Notes under the pieces: model-generated
Databases searched by the model: none
What the model was told of the DNA's origin: nothing
What the model saw: only the letters and a program-made list of their open reading frames with translations
Translations under genes and position numbers: made by a program
From: Candidatus Levyibacteriota bacterium
Lineage (GTDB): Bacteria; Patescibacteriota; Microgenomatia; Levybacterales; UBA12049
DNA: 64,000 nt
Direction: 5' to 3'
NCBI GenBank assembly: GCA_963716145.1
Contig: OY970292.1
Span: forward strand, 746,169 to 810,168
Part shown: positions 1 through 20,418 of the stretch, piece after piece
Layout: every line of letters starts with the position of its first letter
How positions within the stretch are numbered: the first letter of the stretch is position 1

Positions 1-313
1 TTTTGTTGGGTTATACCAGGCATTCAAATTATTAAACTTTATTGATGCCAATAAAGCCTTTTCCCAAGGTGCTGTTAATACACTCAAGAATATGAAATTT
101 GCCTCTCTCAGTCTTATCGGTTTTATTGTATTAGCAGTGTTTTACATCCGTTTCGTTGCGAGTGGTGATGATCCAGCAGGTCCGACGGCGCTTGGAATTA
201 TTATCAACTTTCGCTTCTATCGTAATTGCAACCGCTGCTGCTGTTTTTCAAAAACTTCTCAAAATGCGGTAGACATAAAATCAGAAAATGATTTAACAGT
301 ATAAGGCAGGAAT

Positions 314-523
314 ATGGCAATAATAATCAACATTGATGTGATGCTGGCAAAGCGAAAAATGAGCGTCACTGAACTCACAGAGAAAGTTGGTATAACCATG
401 GCCAATCTTTCCATCTTGAAAAATGGAAAGGCAAAGGCAATCCGCTTTTCAACTCTGGAGGCGATTTGCAAAGCTTTAGATTGTCAGCCCGGAGACATTC
501 TGGAATATGAAAACAAAAAGTAA
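314..523 (+). CDS. XRE-family (Cro/C1-type) HTH transcriptional regulator, YozG-like, 69 aa
   Basis: ORF track; HTH segment 'MSVTELTEKVGITMANLSILKNGK' is typical of short XRE regulators. Confidence 0.8.
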   Translation: MAIIINIDVMLAKRKMSVTELTEKVGITMANLSILKNGKAKAIRFSTLEAICKALDCQPGDILEYENKK

Positions 524-818
524 TAGCATTATGCAACACAAAGACATTGCCAGCGTTTTCGTCGTGACAACTGGCATTTTGATGATACCCTTGGTAGCTA
601 TGCAGTTTACCAGTGAAGTGGATTGGAAGCTGTTTGACTTCATCGTCATCGGCACGCTCCTGATCGGCACCGGGCTCTTAATTGTGCTGGCAGGCAAAAA
701 GATAAAAAGCACCAACCACCGAGTAGCTGCCATTATTGCGCTCTTGGTAACACTTCTTCTCATTTGGATACATCTCGCGGTTGGAATTGTCGACACCTGG
801 CCGCTTGCCGGATCGTAA
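507..818 (+). CDS. small polytopic membrane protein, likely partner of the upstream XRE regulator; true start probably downstream of the 17-bp overlap
   Basis: ORF track; three predicted hydrophobic helices; overlaps and shares strand with the XRE gene. Confidence 0.4.
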   Translation: MKTKSNSIMQHKDIASVFVVTTGILMIPLVAMQFTSEVDWKLFDFIVIGTLLIGTGLLIVLAGKKIKSTNHRVAAIIALLVTLLLIWIHLAVGIVDTWPLAGS

Positions 819-994
819 CTGGTCGCCAAGAAAGACATACCCGAGAATACTTTTGAAAATGCTTGCTCAGCCTCATGGAAATGACTAGACCCTACTTTAT
901 GAAATTATGAAAATAAGCTAATTGAGTTTGGAAAAAACAGGCAAAATTTATTTGGCTGCAGCTATATTCGCCAGCTTTTCGGATTGCTTCAAGA

Positions 995-1465
995 TCAAGT
1001 TTTTTCATTGGCAGGAAGACTTTCAGTTACTGCCTCCGCTTTTTCAGGGTCGCGCATCATTTCATCCAAAATTCTTGGTGCTATTTGCCATGTGACACCG
1101 AATTTGTCTGTACACCATCCGCATTGTTCAGCTTCAGGAACTGCTGAAAGTTTTTCCCAGAAGAAATCAATTTCTTCTTGTGTTTCGCACTCCACAATAT
1201 ATGAAGTTGCGCCGTTAAGTTTGAATTGATCAACAGGACCACCATTAAGAGCCATGAAGCTTATTCCATCAAGCTCGTATTCAGCTGTCATAACAGATCC
1301 TTCAGGTCTTCCGGAAACTTCTTCACTTGCTTTAGGAGTTTTTGTGATGTCTCCAATTTTTGCCTGATGATCACCAGGGGCTGAATTGAAAGTATCTATG
1401 TAGTAGTTTGCTGCCTCTTCTCCGTCATTGTTGGCAAACCAGATGCATGTAATTAGTTTACTCAT
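995..1465 (-). CDS. VOC/glyoxalase-superfamily protein, PhnB/YjdN-like ('3-demethylubiquinone-9 3-methyltransferase' domain family)
   Basis: motifs 'CIWF..EEAANYY', 'ALNGGP', 'CETQEEIDFFWEKL', 'CGWCTDKFGVTWQI' match this family. Confidence 0.7.
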   Translation of the reverse strand: MSKLITCIWFANNDGEEAANYYIDTFNSAPGDHQAKIGDITKTPKASEEVSGRPEGSVMTAEYELDGISFMALNGGPVDQFKLNGATSYIVECETQEEIDFFWEKLSAVPEAEQCGWCTDKFGVTWQIAPRILDEMMRDPEKAEAVTESLPANEKT

Positions 1466-1466
1466 T

Positions 1467-1895
1467 TTATTTATCAGGAGAAAATTCTATTATCCACTCA
1501 ATACCGTATTTATCTCGAAACATACCCGCATATGAGCCCCACGGACTATCTCCCATAGGTCCTTCTACTTCTCCGCCAGCCGAAAGGCCAGTAAATAATC
1601 TGTCCGCCTCTTCTTTACTTTCCGTATTTACCAAAATCTTGCTTCTGTTTTCGTTCTCATTTACTCGTCCCAGAACTTCCGGAACATCATTGGCTATCAA
1701 CATAGTACCTGTACCGATAGGTAAAGCAATATGCATTATTTTATTTTCTTCTTTTTCTGGCACAGGGAATTCAGCGCTCGCAATGTCTTTGAAACGTACT
1801 ACTTTCGCAAACTCTCCGCCGAATACTGATTTATAAAACGTAAATGCTTCTTCTGCATTACCGTTGAAGTTAATCCAAGGATTTATTGTTGCCAT
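1467..1895 (-). CDS. VOC/glyoxalase-superfamily protein, PhnB-like, tandem paralog of the previous gene
   Basis: 'NGNAEEAFTFYKSVFG', 'MHIAL..G..LIAND', 'FRDKYGIEWII' pattern; adjacent, same strand. Confidence 0.65.
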   Translation of the reverse strand: MATINPWINFNGNAEEAFTFYKSVFGGEFAKVVRFKDIASAEFPVPEKEENKIMHIALPIGTGTMLIANDVPEVLGRVNENENRSKILVNTESKEEADRLFTGLSAGGEVEGPMGDSPWGSYAGMFRDKYGIEWIIEFSPDK

Positions 1896-2071
1896 ACAGC
1901 AATAATAGCAAATTAAAGTAATTTGTAAAGAGCTTTTATTTGGCTCCGCCTAATGGACGAAGTCAGAACCTACTATGTTAATATGTAGTTATTTGAATTA
2001 AGCTTGCAATGAATTCTTGCTTATATTGATAAGTGAGTTTAAATAATAGTATAGTATAGTATAGTATATAT

Positions 2072-2461
2072 ATGGCTAATGATCCCAAAAAAAATGAGTC
2101 GTTTTTCAAACATCTTTCCAAGCATCCAATAGATACATTTTTTGAGATATTTGTTTTTTTAGCCTTTACTCCCCTTTATACAAAAGTTACTCCCTGGATT
2201 TCAATTCCCTTAGCATTTATACAAGATATTGTTATCTTGGTCATTATGCTATTACTATTTAATGCAGATTCGGTGCACACTGGGGTTCGTATAAGCTTAT
2301 CAGCAGGTGGAATTTTGGGAGCAATACTAGCAATCGGTATTATTTCTCAATTAATAGAATTTGTTTATTCTAATCTAACTATTTGTATAGTAGGCTTATT
2401 GGTATTTTATATCTATGTTTTTGCAACAAACAAAAGACCTCGATTTGAATGGATTGATTAA
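2072..2461 (+). CDS. hypothetical integral membrane protein (AT-rich island cargo)
   Basis: ORF track; about 33% GC; hydrophobic helices; preceded by (tatag)x4 tandem repeat at 2049-2070. Confidence 0.4.
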   Translation: MANDPKKNESFFKHLSKHPIDTFFEIFVFLAFTPLYTKVTPWISIPLAFIQDIVILVIMLLLFNADSVHTGVRISLSAGGILGAILAIGIISQLIEFVYSNLTICIVGLLVFYIYVFATNKRPRFEWID

Positions 2462-2552
2462 GCATAGTATGTTCCGCCTGATAGACGACTTTTAATCTAT
2501 GTAAAATATTAAATTTATTTTTCAAATAGGTTTAATGTATTTAACATAACTA

Positions 2553-3281
2553 CTATTTATGAATTTCAAAACCATTAACAGTAAGAATTTTATATTTTCT
2601 ATCAAGTGGAACCCGTTTAGAGATTGTTTTGTTTAGTATCTTGCCAACTGTAACATTCTGGAGTTCTCTACGAAAATCATCTAAAAAAGCACTTATTTCG
2701 GTTGTATTTAGCCAATAAGTGTTAATTAATTTAATTAATTCTTTATCGTTTAATTTCATTGTTTTTCCAAAAAACTCTGGAAAGATTTGCTCAGTTAAAT
2801 TCATATGCTTATCATTTACCCTTGTTCTAAATTCATTTAGGAAGATTCCACGCATTTTTTTTAAAGAATCAAATATAATTTCATGATTTTCGTATGACTG
2901 CACAAAATTTACATATGCGGTTTGTAGATCTGAATACCTGTCCGAAACCTCATTCCATTTATCTAATCTGTGCTTTGTTTGATTATTCCCGTTTACCAAT
3001 GGATTGTTTTGGCTAATTATAAAATAAATCAACCATTGAATAGTTGTACTATAGTTTGAAAACGCTGTTGAAAATTCAAAAAGTTTATTTTGAAAATCAC
3101 TCCATCCTTCATAGATAATCTTGTGTTCAAATTGCTTAGACATTTGCCTAAAAGCTGTTTTAACGGCAATAAATGCGGCAATTAAAGTTACAGATGCACC
3201 AATTAAAACTCCTAGGAGTTGAGCTTCATTAGCATGGAGTGATTTAGTCCACTCGTGTAAACCTAGTATAGCTTCATACAT
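2553..3281 (-). CDS. hypothetical protein with N-terminal TM anchor (AT-rich island cargo)
   Basis: ORF track; about 30% GC; no recognisable motifs. Confidence 0.4.
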   Translation of the reverse strand: MYEAILGLHEWTKSLHANEAQLLGVLIGASVTLIAAFIAVKTAFRQMSKQFEHKIIYEGWSDFQNKLFEFSTAFSNYSTTIQWLIYFIISQNNPLVNGNNQTKHRLDKWNEVSDRYSDLQTAYVNFVQSYENHEIIFDSLKKMRGIFLNEFRTRVNDKHMNLTEQIFPEFFGKTMKLNDKELIKLINTYWLNTTEISAFLDDFRRELQNVTVGKILNKTISKRVPLDRKYKILTVNGFEIHK

Positions 3282-3432
3282 TTGAATGGATTATATCAAA
3301 AGATAAGCCATATTGCTCCCCAAGCCGTTGATTAATATAACTATAGATTTTGATAGCATAACTAACACAATCCAAGACGTACTATATATTGGAGAATTAA
3401 GAAAGAGATGGAAGGAGATTAAGCTTCTTATC

Positions 3433-4239
3433 TCAAGGGGTTAACTGTTTCAATTCATTTTCAATATACTTGATTTGTGCCATAAACGATTCTACATACC
3501 ATAAGGCTTCTCCCTCTTTTGGTTCAGGACTGTTTCCTGCATGGGCAACACCCCAAACATCTCCTCTATAAGCAACAAGATTTTCAATTAGCTTTACTTG
3601 TATTGGGTGTAAATTAATTTTTTTAGACAGCATTTTAAATGCAGATTCAAAAGTATTCTGAGTTGTAGTTTTTTTACAATAATCCTCAAAAACAATGCAC
3701 ATATCCTTTACCACATCCTTAGGTTTTTTAGATCTTGTAATCAAGCCATCCACTAGATCTCTAAAAACTTGCTGCGTCTTACTTGCAAAAGCTAATGTTT
3801 TATCTGTATCTGTTATGGTTTTTGCAGTTTCATCTTCTATTTTTAGATCAACATGTCCATCTGAGCTGAATTCATATACAGATCCTGAGTTGTTAAAAGC
3901 AAGACATATATCTCTAAAGAGTCTTAGTCTCTTAGTGCTATCCAAATCTCGTTTTGCTCTATCATAGTAAATTTCTATAAAATCGAAGATTTGATCATAA
4001 GTTGTTTTAGTTTCATCACGAAAATCCTCGATTCCTATTATATTGCCAAAATGCATTTGTAGATCTTTACTGAATGCTACATTATGTATCCAGTTAGTGT
4101 TGCCTATGCTGAAATTATATTCGTTTCCACTATAAGGATGTCCATAAAGTTGTAGTATTCTATTTCTCAGGCTTTTTGATGCATCACCGTATCCTGAGTA
4201 TTCTTTTTTTAGGCTATTTCGTTTTGAAAAAGTTTGCAT
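3433..4239 (-). CDS. hypothetical protein (AT-rich island cargo), 268 aa
   Basis: ORF track; about 32% GC; sits immediately next to the tRNA-derived repeat block. Confidence 0.4.
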   Translation of the reverse strand: MQTFSKRNSLKKEYSGYGDASKSLRNRILQLYGHPYSGNEYNFSIGNTNWIHNVAFSKDLQMHFGNIIGIEDFRDETKTTYDQIFDFIEIYYDRAKRDLDSTKRLRLFRDICLAFNNSGSVYEFSSDGHVDLKIEDETAKTITDTDKTLAFASKTQQVFRDLVDGLITRSKKPKDVVKDMCIVFEDYCKKTTTQNTFESAFKMLSKKINLHPIQVKLIENLVAYRGDVWGVAHAGNSPEPKEGEALWYVESFMAQIKYIENELKQLTP

Positions 4240-4280
4240 GTATAATTTAAATTCGAAGTAAATCCGAAGAAATCCATAGG

Positions 4281-4461
4281 TGCTCCGCGACTAGGATTTT
4301 CCTTCGGCTTCGCTCAGGATAAACTGTTTAATTTTGGGAAGTTTCGCTCCGCGACTAGGATTTCCGCCAAAGGGCGGATAAACTCCCCTCAGGACCCTGT
4401 CAGCCTACTGGCTGATTGAAGTTAACAGCTTCCTGTCCGCCAGCTGGCGGACTATCGCGAA
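4281..4461 (-). repeat. block of degenerate tRNA-Asn-derived repeats: two tandem copies of the tRNA 3' end (T-stem plus acceptor, 'gctccgcgactaggattt'), each preceded by a different hairpin, plus a 5'-half pseudo-copy (acceptor-TAG-16-nt palindrome-anticodon arm 'ttgaagttaacagcttcctg')
   Basis: direct comparison with the intact tRNA at 4478-4552; the palindrome 'tccgccagctggcgga' replaces the D-arm. Confidence 0.7.
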
Positions 4462-4477
4462 TAATATTCTAAAGATT

Positions 4478-4552
4478 TGGCTCCGCGACTAGGATTCGAA
4501 CCTAGGACCTTGAAGTTAACAGCTTCCTGCTCTACCGCTGAGCTATCGCGGA
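4478..4552 (-). tRNA. tRNA-Asn (anticodon GTT), CCA encoded
   Basis: hand-folded cloverleaf: acceptor TCCGCGA/TCGCGGA, D-arm GCTC-AGCGGTA-GAGC, anticodon arm GGAAG-CTGTTAA-CTTCA, T-arm CTAGG-TTCGAAT-CCTAG, discriminator G then CCA. Confidence 0.85.
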
Positions 4553-4561
4553 GCCAAATCT

Positions 4562-4807
4562 TTACTTTGGAATATATTTTTTTATGAATTCTCTTCCCCG
4601 GTAACTTTTTAATTGTCTTTCTCGGATCAATGCTGATCTGCGATCAACAACTTCTTCTTTATAAATCAGAACCCATTCCCCATCAATCTTTGCCGTAAAA
4701 TGATTTCCTCTTTTTTTATTATGTTCAGTTAGCCTTGATTCTATATTTGCTGTTTGCCCAATGTAAATTTTGTCTTTTAAACCGTTGTGTAAAGCGTATA
4801 CCCACAT
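4562..4807 (-). CDS. GIY-YIG nuclease family protein (YhbQ/UPF0213-like, 81 aa)
   Basis: 'KIYIGQTANIESRLTEHN' GIY-YIG core with conserved Arg and Glu-His; flanked by tRNA-Asn and the tRNA-derived repeats. Confidence 0.8.
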   Translation of the reverse strand: MWVYALHNGLKDKIYIGQTANIESRLTEHNKKRGNHFTAKIDGEWVLIYKEEVVDRRSALIRERQLKSYRGREFIKKYIPK

Positions 4808-4818
4808 TGAATAATTAT

Positions 4819-4856
4819 ACAGCTTCCTGTCCGCCAGCTGGCGGACTATCGCGGAA
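4819..4856 (-). repeat. truncated tRNA-Asn 5'-half pseudo-copy: acceptor TCCGCGA, TAG, palindromic hairpin, anticodon stem up to 'CTGT'. It is a 35-bp near-perfect direct repeat of 4425-4459
   Basis: sequence identity to 4425-4459 and to the 5' half of the real tRNA; it breaks exactly in the anticodon loop, where the GIY-YIG gene begins. Confidence 0.7.
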
Positions 4857-4959
4857 TATTTTTACGGTATCTGGTATTTTATCACGAAGCCTTATACAAA
4901 TCTATATATAAAAATAGAGTTGAAAAACTTACCCGCTTTCTGCTACTCTTATATGTCCT

Positions 4960-6345
4960 ATGCTCCCCAAATCAATTTGTTTTGTAGATCTTGAAACAAC
5001 AGGAACAAGTGCTTCTTATAACCGCGTAATTGAAATTGGAATTCTTAAAACAATTGATGGAAAAATCGTCAAAAAATACAAAACACTTATTAATCCTCAA
5101 ACTCATATTGATCCTTTTATAGAGCAATTGACAGGAATAAGGCCAGCTGATTTGGAGAACGCTCCTTTATTTGAGGATGTTAAAGATGAAATAGCTGAAA
5201 TTTTGGCTGATTCTGTTTTCGTAGCTCACAATGTCAGATTTGATTATGGATTTCTGCGCAATGAATTCAAAAGATGCGGTACAAGACTAAGTCTTAAACA
5301 TTTCTGTACAGTCAAGCTTTCACGCATTCTTTTTCCTGATCTGAAAAGACACAATTTGGACGCAGTAATTGAAAAGTTTGGTATAAAATGTGAGAACCGC
5401 CACCGAGCAATGGACGATGCCAAAGTGCTTTATGAGTTTTATAAAAAATCCCAAAAGCTAGTTGATAGCGAAGTATTTGAACGAGCTGTAAATATAGCGC
5501 TAAAGAGGCCCAGTATTCCTCTTAACATCAGTCAAGACGTCTTGGACAATCTCCCCGAGTCATCCGGTGTTTATGTGTTTTATGGAGAAGGTGATTCTAT
5601 CCTTTACATCGGAAAAAGTATCAATATCCACGACCGTGTTTTGTCGCACTTTTCAAACGACCATGTCTCTTCAACTGATATGAAAATATCAAAAGAAATA
5701 ACCCACATTGAGACAATTGTGACCTCCGGAGAATTGGGAGCATTGCTTCTGGAATCAACGATGATCAAAAAGCATCAGCCGTTTTTCAACCGCCGCCTCC
5801 GAGCGTCACGGAAAATGACAATTCTTATGAAATGTGTTGATCAAAACGGCTACAATTCCACCGAAATCAAAGAACTTGAGGCTATATCTGTTACTGATAT
5901 AGATAACATAATCGGAGTTTTCAAAAATCCCAAGCAGGTAAAAGATTTTCTCTATATTCTGGCTAAGAATTACCGGCTTTGCCCAAAATTGTTAAGACTT
6001 GAGAAAACGAAAAGCTATTGTTTTTATTATCAGCTTAACCAGTGTGATGGCGCCTGTAAAAATGATGAGCTTAACCTGAAATACAATCTGCGCTTTGATG
6101 AAGCTTTTTACAAGCACAAGATAAGGCCATGGAAGTTTGAGGGCCCGATAATAATTAAAGAAAATAACCATGCTAAAGACGGATTTGTGGTGGATAAATG
6201 GTGTCTTCTCGGCAAAATCAATGCTGACACGGGCTTTGAAGATTTATCAAAAGAATATATATTTGATCTTGATACATACAAAATCCTGAGCAGATTCATA
6301 ACAAAACGCGATAAATCCCTGACAATCAATATGCTGAAAAATTAA
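4960..6345 (+). CDS. DnaQ-like DEDDh 3'-5' exonuclease fused to a UvrC/Cho-type GIY-YIG nuclease domain (Cho-like excinuclease or PolIII epsilon-like)
   Basis: Exo I 'FVDLETTG', Exo II 'HNVRFDYGFL', Exo III 'HRAMDDA'; GIY-YIG 'GVYVFYG..ILYIGKS...R..SHF'. Confidence 0.75.
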   Translation: MLPKSICFVDLETTGTSASYNRVIEIGILKTIDGKIVKKYKTLINPQTHIDPFIEQLTGIRPADLENAPLFEDVKDEIAEILADSVFVAHNVRFDYGFLRNEFKRCGTRLSLKHFCTVKLSRILFPDLKRHNLDAVIEKFGIKCENRHRAMDDAKVLYEFYKKSQKLVDSEVFERAVNIALKRPSIPLNISQDVLDNLPESSGVYVFYGEGDSILYIGKSINIHDRVLSHFSNDHVSSTDMKISKEITHIETIVTSGELGALLLESTMIKKHQPFFNRRLRASRKMTILMKCVDQNGYNSTEIKELEAISVTDIDNIIGVFKNPKQVKDFLYILAKNYRLCPKLLRLEKTKSYCFYYQLNQCDGACKNDELNLKYNLRFDEAFYKHKIRPWKFEGPIIIKENNHAKDGFVVDKWCLLGKINADTGFEDLSKEYIFDLDTYKILSRFITKRDKSLTINMLKN

Positions 6346-6350
6346 ACCTC

Positions 6351-6941
6351 ATGTATAATATGTCCATGAAGGAAATTCTGGGATTTACGACAATCATACT
6401 TGCTATAACTGGACTTATTCCTTACTTTCTGGATATTCTCAAAGGTAAGACCAAACCACATCTTTACTCCTGGATACTTTGGACCGTGACATCAATTTTG
6501 GTTTTTGTTGGGCAAATCCAAAAAGGGGCTGGAGCGGGGGCATGGAACACAGGTATAGTCGGATGCTTATCGCTTTTCATCACAGTCCTGACATTTAAAA
6601 AAGGCGCCAAAGATATAACCAAGTCAGATAAATTGATGTTTGCAATTGCCCTATTGTCAATAATACCCTGGCTTTTAACCAAAGACCCGACACTGTCAAT
6701 TATAATTTTGACTGGAATTAATCTTTCAGCGGTTGTTCTCACAATGAGAAAAACCCTCAAACATCCTGGTAGCGAAAGCTTAATTCTGTATTCAACAAAT
6801 ATTATCAGGCACTTTTTGGCAATAATTGCGTTATCAAACTACAATCTCGCAACATACATTTTCCCGAGCTCACTTTTTATAGCAAATATATTAATGGTTT
6901 TTACTATTTTGAAGCCATCTTACTTTTTTAAGCGAAGCTAA
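6351..6941 (+). CDS. polytopic membrane protein of unknown function, 196 aa; paralog of 57856..58446
   Basis: shared 'L..IKGK.KP...W.LW' and 'KHPGSESL.LYS' / 'SHPETESYLVYF' segments, same length. Confidence 0.5.
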   Translation: MYNMSMKEILGFTTIILAITGLIPYFLDILKGKTKPHLYSWILWTVTSILVFVGQIQKGAGAGAWNTGIVGCLSLFITVLTFKKGAKDITKSDKLMFAIALLSIIPWLLTKDPTLSIIILTGINLSAVVLTMRKTLKHPGSESLILYSTNIIRHFLAIIALSNYNLATYIFPSSLFIANILMVFTILKPSYFFKRS

Positions 6942-7075
6942 TTCTTGCATTTTCCTTACTTTCCTTTTATTTGTTTATATTAAAGAAAAACTAATATATT
7001 AGCATATGGAAACGCAATTATTACTCTTAACATCAGGTGCTGTGGGCTTTTTTGTCTTCATGAAAACCCAATTCC

Positions 7076-8071
7076 TCAATTAGTAAATTCTTGAGAGTAC
7101 ATTTTCCCGTATACTCCCCCATCAATTACTCCTACTCCTATTTTGCCGAAATTTGGACTGAGGATATTTTTTCTGTGTCCCGGACTATTCATAAGTCCCT
7201 GCATGGCAAGCTCTGTTGATGGTGCAAGTGCCAGATTTTCTCCCGCGAAATTAAACTCAATACCCGCTTTCTCCATTCGGTCAAAAGGCGAGACTCCCTC
7301 CGGGGTATAGTGGCTAAAATAGCCTCTAGCAAACATATCATCTGAATGAGCTCTTGCAACCGTGCGAAGTTCGTCATCAAAAGAAAGCAGCTTAACTCCT
7401 GCTTTTTCTCTTTCCTTATTTACAGCTTGAAACATCTCCCGCTCTGCTTGGGAATCCTCTGTGCCCTTTTGAACTTTGAAGTGAAGATTTACCTGACTCT
7501 TGCTTTGAGGCTCAACTGTCATAAAGTTGAGTGTTTCGCTCAATGCTCCGCCAAATACATCATTGAGCTTTTTTTCAAAAAAAGATGTATTTGTTATGAG
7601 CCGGGAGCCGATTCGTGAGTCTGTTACCAAATTTTTAACAAGGGGGGACGAGGGCAAGGACACAATTACTGAAAGCAAAAAAGACAAGACTATAAAAGCC
7701 GAGACTGCGCCTGGCACAAGGCCCAAAAAGTGGTCAATTTTTTTAAATATTTTGTAAATAACAAATGTTGGAGGTATGGAAGGAATCCTGTTAAGCAATT
7801 TCCTAAAAATAATACTTAGCAGTACTTCAGCAACTAAGGCTGTCAAGAAAAATCCTGCCGCATTTGCAAAACCCAAAGGCATAGAAAAAGAATTTATCAG
7901 AAGGGAAGCAACCAAACCATAAAATTTAAGAGCAATTATAAATGAGAGAACAAAGCTTGCCAAATCCAAAAAGGCCAGAGTAAAACCTAAAACATATCCT
8001 TCATGGGCATAAAACAGAATAACTACTACAGTAATAATATCCAGTAGATTTATGCCAAAATTTCCCATCAT
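7076..8071 (-). CDS. fusion protein: N-terminal CvpA-family membrane domain plus C-terminal CAP/SCP (YkwD-like) domain
   Basis: N-terminal multi-TM CvpA-like region; C-terminal 'GYFSHYTPEG...SPGHRKNILSPNFGKIGVGV' CAP signature. Confidence 0.65.
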   Translation of the reverse strand: MMGNFGINLLDIITVVVILFYAHEGYVLGFTLAFLDLASFVLSFIIALKFYGLVASLLINSFSMPLGFANAAGFFLTALVAEVLLSIIFRKLLNRIPSIPPTFVIYKIFKKIDHFLGLVPGAVSAFIVLSFLLSVIVSLPSSPLVKNLVTDSRIGSRLITNTSFFEKKLNDVFGGALSETLNFMTVEPQSKSQVNLHFKVQKGTEDSQAEREMFQAVNKEREKAGVKLLSFDDELRTVARAHSDDMFARGYFSHYTPEGVSPFDRMEKAGIEFNFAGENLALAPSTELAMQGLMNSPGHRKNILSPNFGKIGVGVIDGGVYGKMYSQEFTN

Positions 8072-8120
8072 AATGTATATTATAAAGCAAATTGATCTAT
8101 GCTAAAATAGAAAGACGAAG

Positions 8121-10355
8121 ATGATGGTCAAACGATATAACAAAATAGTAAAAAAAGCAAAAAAGTTTTCCAAAACACGCCGTGTTCTTTTTATCTTTAT
8201 CTGCATCGTGTCAGCGTTGCTGGTAGCTTTTGGCCTGCTATATATTTTCCTTCTACGGGATCTTCCCTCACCTACCAAACTCACGAATACCACCGGCTCT
8301 TACTCAACCCAAATCTACGATAGGCATGGGACATTGCTTTACACTATTTACGCAGACCGCAATCAAAGCTTTATCCCGCTTGAAAAGATTCCAAAAAATC
8401 TCCAGCTCGCCACAATTGCCGTTGAGGATAAAGATTTTTACCGCCATGGAGCAGTGGACTTCCGCGGAATTGCCAGAGCGCTCTATTCAATTGCCGTTCA
8501 TAAACAGCTGCAAGGAGGCTCAACCCTTACCCAGCAATTGGTTAAAACCAGTCTCCTCACGCCTGAGAGGACAGTAACCAGAAAAATAAAAGAGGTGATT
8601 TTGGCATTTGCGACCGAGGCGCTTTACCCTAAAAACAAAATTCTTGAAATGTATTTGAATCAGGTTCCATATGGAGGAACATCGTACGGTGTTGAAGCAG
8701 CTTCTCTTGCATTTTTTGGCAAACCTGTTAAAGACTTAAGTCTTGCTCAGCAGGCATTTTTGGCCGGACTTCCCGAAGCGCCAAGCACTTTCTCCCCTTT
8801 GGGTTCGCATCCTGAGCTTGGAAAAAAACGTCAGGAGGAAATTTTGCAGAAAATGTATGAGCAGAATTACATTACCAAACAAGAAAGAGACAAGGCTTTG
8901 GCAGAAACGCTTCATTTTCAAAAAATCACCAACCCTATAAAAGCTCCGCATTTTGTGTTTTATGTCAAGGATCTATTGGTTAAAAAATATGGCGAAGATG
9001 CAGTAACGCGGGGAGGCTTGAAAGTTCAAACTAGTTTGGATCTTGACACTCAAAAATATGTCGAAGCAACTGTTTCCGCGCAGCTTGAAGATCTTGGATC
9101 ACACAATGTGGGCAACGGAGGAGCAGTTGTTACCAATCCCGCAACAGGGGAAATTCTGGCGATGACAGGCGGGAAAGATTATTTTGGTACTTCTGAACCT
9201 GAGGGATGTATAGTTGGAAAAACCTGCGTATTTGAACCAAATGTAAATGTAACAATCGCCCAGCAGGAACCCGGTTCATCAATAAAACCGATCAATTACG
9301 CGGTAGGACTTATGAAAGGCTACTCGGCAGCAACACCTTTTATTGACGCGCCAATTTGCTTCCCAATTCCAGGTGATAAACCATTTTGTCCGCGCAATTA
9401 TGATGGCCGTTTCCATGGTATTGTCTCGATGAGAACGGCACTTGGAAGTTCTTTTAATATACCGGCAGTTGAAATGTTAAAACTTAATACAGTAGACAGC
9501 ATGATAGAAACCGCACGGACGATGGGATTAAAACTTAATGATCCCAGGGGATATGGGTTATCTCTAACTCTTGGAGGTGGTGGAGTTACGATGCTTGAAA
9601 TGTCAACTGCTTTTGGGGTCTTTGCCAATCAGGGATACCGCGTCGACCTACACCCGATTCTCAAAATTACAGACAGAGACGGAAAAGTGATTGAAAATTA
9701 CAAACCTCCAAGCAGTCCTATTTTTGGCAAGAAAGTAATTCCTTCTGAAGTGGCTTTTATAATTTCAGACATCTTAAGCGATAATAACGCGCGTATTCCG
9801 GCATTTGGTGCGAATTCTCAGCTGAAAATTGACGGCAAACATGTTTCAGTCAAAACAGGAACCACCAATGATTACAAAGATAACTGGACCATTGGATACA
9901 CTCCGTCTTACTTGGTTGCCGTGTGGGTAGGAAATAATGATAATACTCCAATGTCAGGAGTTGTTTCGGGAGTAACCGGCGCGGCACCGATCTGGCATGA
10001 CCTGATGAGCCATCTTCTAGAGAATAAAAAATCCGAAATACCACAAAAGCCGCCAAATGTTTACGCCAAATATGCCTGCCTCACAACAGGAACAGCATCA
10101 ACAAGCGACAATAACAGCAAATGCGCGACACGTTTTGAATACTTTATTAGAGGCGCAGAAACCAAAAATCCAATGAGTGTCAAAAAAGAGAAAGTCTTTG
10201 TTGACAAAACAACCAACGAGCAGGCAAAGCCAGGACAAACAGAAAATGTTGAAGAGCGGGAGATGGATGTGATGATTGATGTGATAGGCAATAAATATTG
10301 CCTGGGCTGCGCTCATCCTGGATCGCCTACCCCGACTCCGGTTATACCGCACTAA
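8121..10355 (+). CDS. mrcA: class A penicillin-binding protein (PBP1A; transglycosylase plus transpeptidase)
   Basis: GT51 motif 'EDKDFYRHGAVD', 'RGGSTLTQQ'; transpeptidase 'SSIKP', 'KTGTTND'; N-terminal TM. Confidence 0.85.
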   Translation: MMVKRYNKIVKKAKKFSKTRRVLFIFICIVSALLVAFGLLYIFLLRDLPSPTKLTNTTGSYSTQIYDRHGTLLYTIYADRNQSFIPLEKIPKNLQLATIAVEDKDFYRHGAVDFRGIARALYSIAVHKQLQGGSTLTQQLVKTSLLTPERTVTRKIKEVILAFATEALYPKNKILEMYLNQVPYGGTSYGVEAASLAFFGKPVKDLSLAQQAFLAGLPEAPSTFSPLGSHPELGKKRQEEILQKMYEQNYITKQERDKALAETLHFQKITNPIKAPHFVFYVKDLLVKKYGEDAVTRGGLKVQTSLDLDTQKYVEATVSAQLEDLGSHNVGNGGAVVTNPATGEILAMTGGKDYFGTSEPEGCIVGKTCVFEPNVNVTIAQQEPGSSIKPINYAVGLMKGYSAATPFIDAPICFPIPGDKPFCPRNYDGRFHGIVSMRTALGSSFNIPAVEMLKLNTVDSMIETARTMGLKLNDPRGYGLSLTLGGGGVTMLEMSTAFGVFANQGYRVDLHPILKITDRDGKVIENYKPPSSPIFGKKVIPSEVAFIISDILSDNNARIPAFGANSQLKIDGKHVSVKTGTTNDYKDNWTIGYTPSYLVAVWVGNNDNTPMSGVVSGVTGAAPIWHDLMSHLLENKKSEIPQKPPNVYAKYACLTTGTASTSDNNSKCATRFEYFIRGAETKNPMSVKKEKVFVDKTTNEQAKPGQTENVEEREMDVMIDVIGNKYCLGCAHPGSPTPTPVIPH

Positions 10356-19602: not shown

Positions 19603-19690
19603 GGAGGGATGTCTGAGTGGTTTAAGGTAACTCCTTGCTAAGGAGTCGTGGGGGTAAACCCTACCGCAGGTTCGAATCCTGTTCCCTCCG
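19603..19690 (+). tRNA. tRNA-Ser (anticodon GCT), class II with long variable arm
   Basis: acceptor GGAGGGA/TCCCTCC, anticodon arm ACTCC-TTGCTAA-GGAGT, T-loop TTCGAAT, discriminator G. Confidence 0.85.
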
Positions 19691-19746
19691 CTTCAAATTA
19701 CAATTCATATATATAAATTGCTATTAGTTTTTGCTAACATTAGATT

Positions 19747-20187
19747 ATGGAAAAAGATCAACCATTTTTAGAAAAATGGATTCTGCCGAGATTTGATATT
19801 GACGGCTTAAATACTGTTGAATGGGGCGAATGGACTTCTGGTATCTGGGAAACAGCGTTTATTCAAGTTAAGATCAATGGTATCCAGTACATTCTTGCCC
19901 AAGACTCATCAGGACAAGTCTTCCCAAGAGGAGAGCCAAAAGATTGGCTACGTAAGTATCTCTTTGAAATTGAACTACGGGAGAGAAGGAAACTACCTTT
20001 CCAGCCCACAGATGCAGTAAGAACAAGGCGGGAAACAACGATTGGTAATTATTCAACCAATTACGGCGTAAAATTAACTGATGAGGATTTATTTCCACTT
20101 GAATATAATGCTCAACCAAACAGAAAAAAGAAATTTAAAAATTATGAAAGTCCTTACATGGATTGGTTTATGTTATTTAAGCAGTAG
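19747..20187 (+). CDS. hypothetical protein, 146 aa, located between two Ser-type tRNA genes
   Basis: ORF track only. Confidence 0.35.
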   Translation: MEKDQPFLEKWILPRFDIDGLNTVEWGEWTSGIWETAFIQVKINGIQYILAQDSSGQVFPRGEPKDWLRKYLFEIELRERRKLPFQPTDAVRTRRETTIGNYSTNYGVKLTDEDLFPLEYNAQPNRKKKFKNYESPYMDWFMLFKQ

Positions 20188-20293: not shown

Positions 20294-20378
20294 GGAGGAG
20301 TCGCATAGTGGTCTAGTGCAGCGGTTTACTAAACCGCCATACCGCAAGGTATCGGGAGTCCGAATCTCCCCTCCTCCG
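20294..20378 (+). tRNA. class II tRNA, tRNA-Ser(GCU) paralog with anticodon loop TTACTAA (apparent anticodon ACU, A34) and T-loop TCCGAAT (C55); possibly a pseudo- or atypical tRNA
   Basis: hand fold: acceptor GGAGGAG/CTCCTCC, D-arm GCAT-AGTGGTCTA-GTGC, anticodon stem GCGGT/ACCGC, variable-arm hairpin ATACC-GCAA-GGTAT, T-stem GGGAG/CTCCC; the anticodon loop differs from the upstream tRNA-Ser by a single G-to-A change at position 34. Confidence 0.6.
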
Positions 20379-20418
20379 CTCTTATATTAATAATCCTCTT
20401 TCTGCTACACTAATTAAA

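Follow-up and report, generated by a model that had tools for sequence, protein, structure and literature searches.

Phage T4 encodes SegB, a free-standing GIY-YIG homing endonuclease whose gene lies in the T4 tRNA gene cluster (PMC2330249). The preferred cleavage site of SegB is within the tRNA-Asn gene of phage T2L, and its 27-bp recognition site lies at tRNA gene 3' ends; SegB promotes the transmission of its own gene along with the adjoining tRNA region (PMC2330249). GIY-YIG open reading frames (ORFs) have also been described in the rRNA genes of CPR bacteria, where they are found in non-intron insertions; these inserts are sparse, occupy poorly conserved sites and were judged not to have been spread by homing (PMC11270868). 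That paper holds no tRNA case, as the term tRNA occurs zero times in it. The locus analyzed here lies in a stretch of 64,000 nucleotides (64 kb), referred to as the window, and all its features are read on the minus strand. We suggest that it probably carries a small cassette that is selfish and of the homing type, with the tRNA-Asn(GUU) gene of CPR/Patescibacteria as its dedicated target.

The locus starts with TGATAAAAT (4876..4884), which together with the leader matches, column for column, the promoters and leaders of cassette-free tRNA-Asn genes (L099, L125, L174 and L135 of the survey below). This conservation suggests an extended -10 promoter element of the tRNA-Asn gene, which would now drive the pseudo 5' half, the nuclease ORF and the tRNA; a consensus promoter scan did not list TGATAAAAT among its elements. 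Next comes a displaced pseudo 5' half of tRNA-Asn (4819..4855), termed a* or copy A and delimited by sequence, repeats and the match to the resident tRNA. It is a copy of tRNA nt 1-35 with the D-arm swapped for a hairpin. Thus, nt 1-10 (TCCGCGATAG, 4855-4846) are followed by the palindrome TCCGCCAGCTGGCGGA (4845-4830) and then by the anticodon-stem 5' strand with CTGT (CAGGAAGCTGT, 4829-4819). There are 0 mismatches to the resident tRNA in both the nt 1-10 part and the post-hairpin part, and in the alignment a* has the position of the real tRNA 5' half of empty alleles. An initial annotation had described this pseudo-copy, with a palindrome for the D-arm, and only its start has been corrected, to 4855.

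The ORF that follows (ORF1, 4562..4807) was characterized with Pfam, a homologue alignment and AlphaFold, and encodes a predicted minimal GIY-YIG nuclease of 81 aa. It has its own TAA stop, 9 nt ahead of the functional tRNA-Asn(GUU) (4478..4552), in which CCA is encoded (ARAGORN GTT call; Rfam RF00005, 67.1 bits, E 2.8e-14). Both the ORF and the intact tRNA are as initially annotated. The tRNA is enclosed by a leader strand, TAAAGATTTGGC (4553..4564), which includes the ORF1 stop codon and pairs with 4470-4481, and a trailer strand, GCCAAATCTTTA (4470..4481), which takes in the discriminator base and CCA. Together with the acceptor stem, the two strands form a perfect 19-nt inverted repeat (4470-4488 / 4546-4564), and the stem is lengthened by 12 bp. 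This leader/trailer clamp was absent from the initial annotation. Clamps of different sequence are also present in L007, L119, L187, L164 and L172/178/180.

Downstream of the tRNA lies copy B (4346..4461), which was thought to be a second 5'-half copy. It does begin at 4461, but sequence, repeats and a hairpin scan show it to be a full-length decorated pseudo-tRNA-Asn that extends to about 4346. The 5' half of copy B is that of a*, hairpin included (4461-4425; D-position hairpin 4451-4436), and leads into an anticodon loop and 3' stem (4424-4416). Two more hairpins follow, one at the variable position (4415-4400) and one in the T-loop (4378-4363), before the copy closes with its T-stem and acceptor 3' strands (4362-4346). 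Its computed fold is four-armed and cloverleaf-like (-53.3 kcal/mol, z -3.9). Decorated pseudo-tRNAs like copy B trail the real tRNA in L040, L119, L187, L164 and L130. The two pseudo 3' ends reported earlier both exist, though the first is simply the end of copy B, and the last (4324-4281) is the relic of a 3'-side GIY-YIG cassette. This relic (4281..4324) consists of the motif GTTTATCCTGAGCGAAGCCGAAGGAA and then a tRNA 3'-end copy, AATCCTAGTCGCGGAGCA. It matches the sequence that in L207 and L190 comes after ORF2, the nuclease ORF of a mirror-image 3'-side cassette, and ahead of a duplicated tRNA 3' end; the ORF itself is missing from the relic. We also considered the sequence past the last pseudo 3' end as ancestral tRNA flank, and dropped this idea as the resemblance to L008 and L015 is loose.

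The near-perfect direct repetition of the 5' half is borne out by counts. Copies A and B have in common a 32-nt core that the window contains exactly twice, with 0 occurrences expected, and 44 nt of the two copies align at 91% identity. For the 16-nt tRNA 3' end, the count is three where 0.25 would be expected. The whole 64 kb has only four perfect GC-rich hairpins of 6-bp stem and 4-nt loop, all of them within 4363-4845.

From its sequence and predicted structure, ORF1 is an intact GIY-YIG core. It matches Pfam PF01541 (GIY-YIG) over residues 1-70 with 50.4 bits (cut-off 22.6), and the ORF is intact and of constant length in its family, with 16 invariant residues among 28 aligned homologues. 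Tyr4, Tyr15, Arg25, His29 and Glu63 are invariant, and the catalytic residues presumably correspond to Tyr6/Tyr17/Arg27/Glu75 of I-TevI. The AlphaFold model (pLDDT 93.6) has the strand-strand-helix-helix-strand-helix-helix order of the GIY-YIG fold. The top Foldseek matches are UPF0213, Slx1, the UvrC N-terminal domain and I-TevI. By sequence, the closest solved structures are the UPF0213 proteins 1ywl (E 4.7e-7) and 1zg2, and by fold Slx1 is closest (TM 0.63-0.65). The sequence match to I-TevI is weak, as is that to the group-I-intron endonuclease model TIGR01453 (23 bits, under its cut-off). Neither Pfam nor AlphaFold revealed a DNA-binding module in ORF1, and all 81 aa make up the catalytic core. 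Since the protein is a catalytic core alone, target specificity must come from structure, a partner or homology arms. The family is large, with 1,392 clusters (50% identity, E <= 1e-10). An intron-encoded endonuclease was also considered. There is no Intron_gpI match at 4100-5000, even at E <= 10, and thus no ribozyme around ORF1; where introns occur in other loci, they lie downstream of the ORF, inside the tRNA. A phage origin was set aside as well, since GIY-YIG genes of viral contigs are only 30-36% identical and adjoin no tRNA.

Relatives of ORF1 are encoded in at least 503 genome stretches, and the anatomy was surveyed in the best 80 of these. Loci L001-L080 were chosen for carrying the gene and L081-L200 for one tRNA core, so that the sampling is biased both ways. 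In 80 of the 80 loci the homologue adjoins tRNA-Asn(GUU), immediately 5' of the tRNA. In 67 of the 80, ARAGORN calls a tRNA-Asn(GTT) on the same strand right after the gene; among the other 13, the 5' part of the tRNA is readable in 12, broken by a contig end or an insert, and in L024 an assembly gap begins 6 nt into the tRNA. Rfam identifies four of the inserts as group I introns, and in L010, L027, L051 and L055 the GIY-YIG gene is just upstream of a tRNA-Asn with a group I intron after CTGT, the point where the a* homology stops in the cassette type of the window. Most loci, the window included, have no intron, and thus the tRNA is not intron-protected. The locus titles are mostly Patescibacteria, and the homologue names include Levybacteria; 21 of the 80 are titled Gammaproteobacteria, Pseudomonadales, Bdellovibrionales or Bacteriovorax (titles as deposited). 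We looked at whether relatives of the gene sit at non-tRNA loci with repeats that do not align to the tRNA, and found the gene at tRNA-Asn and the repeats alignable to it. The initial annotation had called the arrangement unusual. Its elements are confirmed, but rather than a local oddity they represent a CPR-wide family.

The design of this family is conserved. In about 78 of the 80 loci, the ORF is preceded, at a distance of 27-95 nt, by a hairpin of the form TCCGCC-N4-GGCGGA, whose sequence is identical in 51 of 91. Its stem covaries: 94% of the cells are paired, five of seven pairs have changed on both sides, and 0 of 500 shuffles score as high. The palindrome is thus a conserved, covarying cassette component in the 80-locus comparison, though non-Watson-Crick cells are too few for wobble asymmetry to tell selection on RNA from selection on DNA. 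The hairpin follows tRNA nt 8, 10 or 13 of a* by type, and in the window it follows nt 10. Sequestration of a Shine-Dalgarno sequence by the hairpin was rejected as a general role, since GGAGG arises only where the hairpin abuts G18G19 (after-nt-13 type) and is absent from the window type and the after-nt-8 type. An upstream copy of tRNA nt 1-10 is present in 68 of 79 cassette loci, compared with 5 of 87 empty loci and 5 of 73 non-Asn tRNAs, and in 63 of 79 loci the pre-hairpin part of a* agrees with the resident tRNA without a mismatch. In 50 of 82 loci, tRNA nt 8-10 (U8-A9-G10) double as the stop codon of the ORF. The same design, with different hairpins, recurs in divergent GIY-YIG subfamilies of 32-39% identity (L158, L161 and L164). 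On the 3' side, where the mirror-image cassette with ORF2 occurs in L207 and L190, a short stem shows compensatory changes (CCT/AGG, GGT/ACC and CCCT/AGGG among the aligned sequences).

Several loci carry traces of past rearrangement. Tandem a*-ORF units are found in L058, L024 and L049, and L172 holds an ORF-deleted cassette relic. The downstream pseudo-half in L172 starts exactly after the anticodon-loop CTGT. In L119 and L187, the acceptor stem of the functional tRNA beside the ORF differs from that of the flanking pseudo-copies. Chimeric a* segments, with an anticodon-stem strand from a different tRNA-Asn type, occur in L003, L007 and L009, and a* of L016 differs from the resident tRNA at one position. 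Nested hairpins, or hairpins in the T-loops and variable loops of pseudo-copies, are seen in L025, L029, L066, L072, L040 and the window.

The comparison with relatives shows the cassette at tRNA-Asn to be present in some and absent in others. Of 105 metagenome contigs that have the same tRNA core and could be assessed, 91 are without it and 14 are filled; the empty contigs include tRNAs with the same 72-nt body as in the window. L006 (filled) and L108 (empty) have 2.1 kb of upstream sequence at 82% identity and the downstream flank in common, and a* of L006 stands exactly where the tRNA 5' half of L108 stands. Likewise, in the alignment of the window with its empty relative L099, a* falls on the promoter and tRNA start. 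Filled and empty states, and the cassette types, are interleaved on a host RpoD tree, where sisters are L008 (type 1) and L174 (empty), L006 (type 1) and L108, L064 (type 2) and L195 (empty), and L164 (divergent subfamily) and L098 (empty). L006 and L064 are 95% identical in RpoD against 60% in ORF1, which may just be fast-evolving in this biased sample. With the same reservations as to sampling and fast ORF evolution, ORF1 identity is flat, mostly 0.5-0.7, over RpoD identities of 0.62-0.95, and its correlation with tRNA identity is weak (r = 0.15, biased sample). For L015/L018 and L069/L041 there is some correlation between host and ORF1. The argument from decoupling would be weakened if ORF1 simply evolves fast, and presence or absence alone could reflect loss, as direct repeats permit precise deletion. 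Nevertheless, the comparative data favor one of the readings offered initially, that of a tiny GIY-YIG homing-type element aimed at tRNA-Asn and carrying a replacement tRNA segment. This is because ORF1 relatives lie at tRNA-Asn in every surveyed locus and orthologous alleles are filled or empty, because the functional tRNAs of L119 and L187 are unlike their pseudo-copies, and because the pseudo-half of L172 starts right after CTGT.

We propose that the core cassette would consist of a* (the displaced first 8-35 nt of the tRNA, with a stable GC-rich hairpin in the D-arm), ORF1 and the start of a complete tRNA-Asn; its ORF, of about 81 aa, is the GIY-YIG catalytic core alone. Because a* lies behind the resident tRNA promoter, the nuclease would be transcribed as a pre-tRNA leader. 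It is predicted to cut the cassette-free tRNA-Asn gene, and repair would then copy the cassette across from the filled allele, with the tRNA-derived segments that flank the ORF serving as portable homology. The host would retain an intact tRNA, the old 5' piece would stay upstream, and the hairpin may mark where the target-like part meets the cassette-borne one. The window appears to represent a rarer, more elaborate state, with its own ORF stop, a clamped tRNA, the copy B pseudogene and the 3'-side relic. It may be the footprint of repeated invasion, duplication and decay, in which copy B would be a former tRNA copy that survives downstream, riddled with hairpins. Some findings speak against homing. 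ORF1 is without a DNA-binding domain, which characterized homing endonucleases such as SegB are expected to need for a long specific site. The functional tRNA is intact in filled alleles, so that a filled allele has no evident escape from cutting. The homology tracts beside the hairpin in window-type a* are only 8-14 nt, which is short for RecA-type repair. A bolder extension, which we regard as rather doubtful, is that a structure-specific, domain-less GIY-YIG nuclease uses the conserved hairpin as its recognition handle. The cassettes would then form a new class of hairpin-guided bacterial mobile elements confined to one tRNA gene, with 5'-side and mirror 3'-side forms, and the window type would disable the host tRNA-Asn by means of hairpins and supply a clamp-protected copy. 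If so, a genome with possibly a single tRNA-Asn gene would depend on the element, a form of addiction via an essential tRNA.

Some of these observations are also expected if the cassette no longer moves. It could be an ancient relic of one insertion or duplication in early CPR bacteria, inherited vertically and lost many times via its direct repeats, with a nuclease that has ceased to spread itself and hairpins that only block deletion by breaking the homology of a* and tRNA. The occurrence of the design across many CPR lineages with a nearly constant hairpin sequence fits this, as do repeats that ease precise loss, a mid-half hairpin that leaves homology pieces of at most 14 nt, and viral-contig homologues so distant that there is no obvious vector. 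We still consider it unlikely. Three hairpin positions and unrelated hairpins in divergent subfamilies speak against one single event, and the relic reading is further opposed by type 1, type 2 and divergent cassettes in sister genomes, a* pieces from another tRNA-Asn type and functional tRNAs unlike their flanking pseudo-copies (L119 and L187). In addition, the preserved fold and catalytic residues need ongoing selection. In another reading, the locus is a domesticated host operon, and the GIY-YIG protein has a cellular task such as structure-specific DNA repair like Slx1/UPF0213 and is co-transcribed with tRNA-Asn. Here, a* with its hairpin would be a regulatory tRNA-like leader coupling nuclease expression to pre-tRNA processing, and the patchiness would reflect loss. 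The large family of intact ORFs of constant length with its 16 invariant residues, the structural selection on the hairpin, and a stop codon within the tRNA that would tie translation to RNase P processing are all compatible with this. A pre-hairpin a* that follows the resident acceptor stem would be expected if the RNA pairs with the tRNA 3' strand. But the cassette is lacking in close relatives whose tRNAs are identical and whose flanks are the same, and various cassette types and subfamilies occupy one orthologous site within a shallow host clade. Further, a* segments of foreign type, tandem units, ORF-deleted relics and hairpin-riddled pseudo-tRNAs are traits of selfish elements, and a mirror-image 3'-side cassette exists, so that a host role is also improbable.

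It seems a little less probable again that the element behaves like a transposon. Its enzyme would recognize a DNA hairpin or cruciform rather than a long sequence, and insert into the D-loop, the T-loop and other hairpin loops by cut-and-copy without homologous repair, with a logic like that of REP/RAYT or IS200/IS605. The nearest structural relatives of ORF1, the structure-specific nuclease Slx1 and the UPF0213 proteins, and its missing DNA-binding domain would suit such an enzyme. Moreover, the stem sequence is conserved beyond the needs of pairing and differs among protein subfamilies, hairpins sit in T-loops and variable loops of pseudo-copies and within one another, and a hairpin marks the displaced-tRNA junction in 5' and 3' cassettes alike. 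Against this, the hairpin is not dispersed in the window, there is no target-site duplication of fixed length (8, 10 or 13 nt), the nested arms could come from slippage, and we know of no GIY-YIG transposase. An actual REP/RAYT or IS200/IS605 type is rejected, since the enzyme is GIY-YIG and not HUH and the 64 kb contain the hairpin at this locus only. Serial integration of islands, the other reading offered initially, would explain the locus as scars of integrases that use the tRNA-Asn 3' end as attachment site. Two direct repeats of that end do lie downstream, and an AbiJ-like, defence-type gene adjoins the locus. This reading is already contradicted, and we give it almost no credence. No recombinase was recognized by eye among the ORFs of window positions 1-10000 or by Pfam in the four flanking genes, and no integrase is among the listed ORFs or scanned flanking genes. 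The repeats are 40-400 nt apart, with just 64 and 134 nt between the 3' repeats, the last of which bears the end motif of the ORF2 cassette. Integrase sites also leave the 5'-half repeats and hairpins unexplained, and the AbiJ-like gene is in synteny with tRNA-Asn in no other locus.

Apart from rRNA insertions, the reduced genomes of CPR bacteria are usually held to be poor in mobile DNA. A selfish homing-type cassette would give them a selfish element that is very small, at about 300 bp, and apparently widespread. It looks like an undescribed element aimed at one tRNA gene in hundreds of CPR bacteria; no description was found in the literature searched, which covered few subscription journals, and an earlier description is possible. 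The cassette is also a natural case of a GIY-YIG catalytic core without a DNA-binding domain, in which the source of specificity, be it the hairpin, homology arms or a partner, is directly testable. The overlap of ORF stop and tRNA and the common promoter would link nuclease expression to pre-tRNA processing, for which we found no parallel in the literature. The cassette accounts for decorated pseudo-tRNAs near tRNA-Asn and for N- or C-terminally extended 'GIY-YIG' gene calls, and it may be behind frequent contig breaks at tRNA-Asn. Thus, annotators of CPR genomes should recognize it.

Among known systems, integrative islands that target tRNA genes and restore the tRNA 3' end resemble the cassette in that the tRNA is kept working by a replacement segment and the displaced partial copy forms a direct repeat. 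The present element differs in having no integrase among the scanned genes, in its size of about 300 bp, in that the 5' half is duplicated in the main cassette, and in the hairpin inside the displaced piece. The inserts in CPR rRNA genes share the bacterial group and the placement of GIY-YIG ORFs in or by structural RNA genes as non-intron inserts. UPF0213 (YazA/YhbQ-like) proteins and the Slx1 domain are likewise stand-alone minimal GIY-YIG cores. Slx1 acts with Slx4 on branched DNA, and UPF0213 proteins differ from ORF1 in being deposited as hypothetical proteins, with no tRNA or hairpin association found in the literature searched. Group I introns of the I-TevI type and anticodon-loop introns of bacterial tRNAs have a nuclease of the same superfamily, and ORF1 starts at the anticodon-loop position. 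However, there is no ribozyme around the ORF here, the downstream tRNA is complete rather than a 3' exon, and the nuclease has no DNA-binding domain. SegB is a phage protein of about 220 aa with a DNA-binding region and is much longer than the chromosomal 81-aa core, which overlaps the tRNA 5' end and is always paired with a hairpin-bearing partial tRNA duplicate. Even so, in both cases a GIY-YIG enzyme is encoded beside tRNA genes and not in an intron, and tRNA-Asn, which the cassette adjoins, also holds the preferred SegB site. SegB is the nearest precedent for the tRNA-Asn cassette.

The tRNA-Asn locus of the window, read on the minus strand, shows every element listed in the initial annotation and holds a single real tRNA. 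This is tRNA-Asn(GUU) at 4552-4478, which both ARAGORN and Rfam recovered in agreement with the initial annotation; even at E <= 10, an Rfam scan of 4100-5000 gave nothing else that was convincing. On its 5' side, the 81-aa ORF at 4807-4562 (ORF1) has a domain match that confirms it as GIY-YIG. The pair is flanked by copy A (a*, 4855-4819), a displaced pseudo 5' half of the tRNA with a GC-rich hairpin in place of the D-arm, and by copy B, a pseudo-tRNA that starts at 4461. These had been described as direct-repeat 5' halves, and they do share a 32-nt exact core (0 expected by chance) and 91% identity across 44 nt. The proposed 5' half is present in copy B, but copy B is not a half copy only: the pseudo-tRNA is complete, hairpins occupy its D, variable and T positions, and its fold is a four-arm structure (z -3.9). 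The repeated tRNA 3' ends also stand, with three occurrences of the 16-nt 3' end against 0.25 expected. The whole 64 kb contains four perfect GC-rich hairpins (6-bp stem, 4-nt loop), all within 4363-4845. A 19-nt perfect inverted repeat (4470-4488 with 4546-4564), here called the clamp, adds 12 bp to the real tRNA's acceptor stem.

The 81-aa protein has a confident GIY-YIG fold (AlphaFold pLDDT 93.6) and no second domain. Its closest solved relatives are the UPF0213 proteins EF2693 and BH0048, followed by the Slx1 nuclease domain, the UvrC N-terminal domain and I-TevI, and its homing-endonuclease matches in NCBIfam and PHROGs are weak only. The wider family comprises 1,392 clusters (50% identity) at E <= 1e-10. 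Metagenome homologues of 81-83 aa are many, and the few named ones belong to Levybacteria, Saccharibacteria and Patescibacteria. One homologue, P0014, runs on into '...GSSTVEQETVNFKV', which, as read from the sequence, looks like a translated tRNA-Asn gene.

The gene is tied to a single target gene. When one genome per species was scanned, at least 503 stretches proved to encode relatives, and tRNA association was scored on the best 80 of these loci (L001-L080). In 67 of the best 80, ARAGORN places tRNA-Asn(GTT) immediately after the gene and in the same orientation. Among the other 13, the 5' part of the tRNA is visible in 12, where it is cut by the contig end or interrupted after CTGT, and in the last (L024) an assembly gap begins 6 nt into the tRNA. 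Rfam calls four group I introns among the tRNA inserts (L010 3277-3513; L027 3255-3505; L051 3252-3488; L055 3626-3870), all after CTGT of the anticodon loop and each with the cassette upstream. Inserts not called by Rfam occur at the same site in L012, L013, L014, L034 and L077. Across L001-L080, contigs frequently end tens to hundreds of bases past the GIY-YIG gene or within the tRNA, and assembly gaps lie at the tRNA-Asn spot in L024, L031 and L035; evidently, the repeats break short-read assemblies. The record titles of 21 of the 80 loci name Gammaproteobacteria, Pseudomonadales, Bdellovibrionales or Bacteriovorax (e.g. L001, L004, L005, L007). Since their GC content, tRNA type and cassette are the same as in Patescibacteria-titled loci, these titles look unreliable.

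The flanks of all loci follow a common order, namely a promoter, a*, the ATG with an ORF of about 81 codons, and the tRNA, where a* is made of the first tRNA nucleotides, the GC-rich hairpin, and the D-stem 3' strand and/or anticodon-stem 5' strand. In most loci ORF1 runs into the tRNA. The stop codon coincides with tRNA U8-A9-G10 in 50 of 82 loci and lies elsewhere within the tRNA in 6 and within a second a* copy in 8; in 15 loci, including the window, ORF1 has a stop of its own upstream of the tRNA. The hairpin TCCGCC-N4-GGCGGA lies 27-95 nt upstream of ORF1 in about 78 of 80 loci. Of 91 hairpin copies, 51 are identical. Across 52 distinct versions the stem is 94% paired and 5 of 7 pairs are changed on both sides, a level reached in 0 of 500 shuffles. 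The hairpin follows tRNA nt 10 and replaces the whole D-arm in type 1 (the window and L001-L019), follows nt 13 within the D-loop in type 2, and follows nt 8 in type 3 (L027, L039, L043, L047, L052). Divergent 5'-side subfamilies (L158, L161, L164; 32-39% identity) have the same design with other hairpins.

Some pseudo-halves are chimeric. Up to the hairpin, a* is identical to the resident tRNA in 63 of 79 loci, despite acceptor stems that differ widely between lineages, and the anticodon-stem part matches it in only 24 of 79. In L003, L007 and L009 the anticodon-stem strand comes from a different tRNA-Asn type, and in L016 a* differs from the resident tRNA at one position. The first ten tRNA nucleotides (nt 1-10) are duplicated upstream at 68 of 79 cassette loci, at 5 of 87 empty loci (three of which are relics that have lost the ORF) and at 5 of 73 non-Asn tRNAs.

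Alignment to relatives, as suggested in the initial annotation, found both filled and empty alleles of tRNA-Asn, with and without the cassette, at orthologous sites. A metagenome scan with a 30-nt core of the window tRNA-Asn gave 120 contigs, of which 14 have an upstream GIY-YIG gene, 15 are too short to judge and 91 are empty, meaning that neither a GIY-YIG gene nor a hairpin occurs in the 330 nt or more available upstream. The 72-nt tRNA body of the window recurs in empty contigs L092, L099, L125, L151 and L131. Filled L006 and empty L108 share 2.1 kb upstream at 82% identity as well as the downstream flank, and a* of L006 sits exactly at the position of the L108 tRNA 5' half, behind the same promoter. 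Likewise, a*, the TGATAAAAT element and the leader of the window can be aligned to the promoter and the beginning of the tRNA in empty relatives, including L099, whose upstream gene is a homologue of window 7076-8071.

In 48 fetched loci, tRNA-Asn is preceded by a sigma-70 (RpoD-like) gene (e.g. L174 2919-3818, L006 776-1675); this neighbourhood is conserved and can serve as a host marker. In the RpoD tree, one shallow clade mixes cassette states, pairing L008 (type 1) with L174 (empty), L006 (type 1) with L108 (empty), L064 (type 2) with L195 (empty) and L164 (divergent subfamily) with L098 (empty). Sister genomes therefore hold several cassette lineages. RpoD of L006 and L064 is 95% identical and ORF1 60%; overall, ORF1 identity is mostly 0.5-0.7 while RpoD spans 0.62-0.95, and ORF1 and tRNA identity correlate weakly (r = 0.15). 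We take this decoupling as suggestive rather than as proof, because sampling is biased and ORF1 possibly evolves fast.

Several genes near the window locus deserve mention. The divergent neighbour at 4960-6345 (+) encodes a DEDD/DnaQ-type exonuclease fused to a Cho/UvrC-like GIY-YIG domain and is most likely a host repair gene. It is missing from L099, in which tRNA-Asn follows the 7076-8071 homologue at a distance of about 100 nt. Directly downstream of the locus, 3433-4239 (-) matches the AbiJ N-terminal domain weakly (29 bits, below cut-off), and the next gene, 2553-3281 (-), matches no Pfam family. Neither was found at other tRNA-Asn loci, and the two may form a small defence islet. Elsewhere, two tRNA-Ser genes (19603-19691 and 20294-20379, the second with an unusual ACT anticodon per ARAGORN) surround a 146-aa ORF (19747-20187) of no obvious family.

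The architecture of the window is a recurrent variant. Loci L119, L187, L164, L040, L007, L130 and L172/L178/L180 resemble it: ORF1 has its own stop, the tRNA is clamped, and further downstream comes a decorated pseudo-tRNA or a pseudo 3' half. The clamp (8-17 bp) varies in sequence by locus and keeps its complementarity. In the window, L007, L119, L187, L164, L172/L178/L180 and L081/L162 it adds 8-15 perfect bp to the acceptor stem. Overlap-type cassettes (64 of 65) and empty loci (84 of 90) mostly lack it, and it is almost restricted to loci with an own ORF1 stop or pseudo-copies around the tRNA; L081 and L162 have a clamp without any cassette. With decoy halves nearby, the clamp may help the pre-tRNA to fold or be processed correctly. 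In L119 and L187, the acceptor stem of the clamped functional tRNA is unlike that of the flanking pseudo-copies, so ORF1 and the tRNA seem to have arrived together and the resident tRNA to have been inactivated. L172 has lost ORF1 except for a 36-nt remnant, and its downstream pseudo-half begins exactly at TAAC, after CTGT. Tandem a*-ORF units are found in L058, L024 and L049.

A mirror-image cassette exists on the 3' side (L207 1263-1620; also L190). Here the tRNA is directly followed by another GIY-YIG gene (ORF2; 99 aa in L207), which belongs to a different subfamily, and then by the motif GTTTAY-[short stem]-GAGCRAAGYCGA-[stem] and a repeated tRNA 3' end. Further GIY-YIG genes lie downstream of tRNA-Asn in L147, L042, L032 and L145. 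Since the last pseudo 3' end of the window (4324-4281) aligns with this motif, including compensatory stem changes, and has no ORF, it is a relic of the 3'-side cassette. Another palindrome, CCTGTACC-N4-GGTACAGG, is inserted at the tRNA-Asn 3' end in L032 (~3300-3400) and L042 (~3300-3335), with GCGGAGCC duplicated on both sides of it; the unit is repeated in L032.

The initial annotation offered a homing-type element and serial island integration as alternatives. The tie of a nuclease-fold gene to one target gene, the insertion polymorphism, several cassette lineages, chimeric pseudo-halves, tandem copies and relics support the homing-element reading, and we infer a free-standing, probably mobile homing-type endonuclease cassette. 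The enzyme would break cassette-free tRNA-Asn DNA, and repair from the filled allele would copy ORF1, with the tRNA-derived pieces flanking ORF1 as the only homology needed. A pre-hairpin piece that is target-like and a post-hairpin piece that can be foreign would fit a junction at the hairpin. If the intact tRNA in the filled allele were cut again, the observed tandem arrays would result. Several roles can be proposed for the hairpin: a structure-specific core enzyme may use it for recognition, it may stop repair synthesis and expose the short homology, it may interrupt the homology between a* and the tRNA and make deletion harder, or it may stabilize the end of the mRNA. Since most ORF1s end inside the tRNA, RNase P, given its established function, would remove their stop codon, and full translation and tRNA maturation of one transcript should thus be mutually exclusive.

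A literature search that covered few subscription journals found no published description of the tRNA-Asn cassette. GIY-YIG ORFs have been reported in non-intron inserts of CPR rRNA genes, where tRNA is unmentioned (PMC11270868). The closest parallel is SegB of phage T4, which is a free-standing GIY-YIG homing endonuclease encoded in a cluster of tRNA genes (PMC2330249), and the cassette loci that carry an intron resemble collaborative homing (PMC3984707). Among homing-type cassettes, this one is unusual in its domain-less nuclease, the covarying hairpin inside a partial target duplicate, the stop codon borrowed from the tRNA, the mirror-image sister cassette and, in some variants, the clamp-held replacement tRNA.
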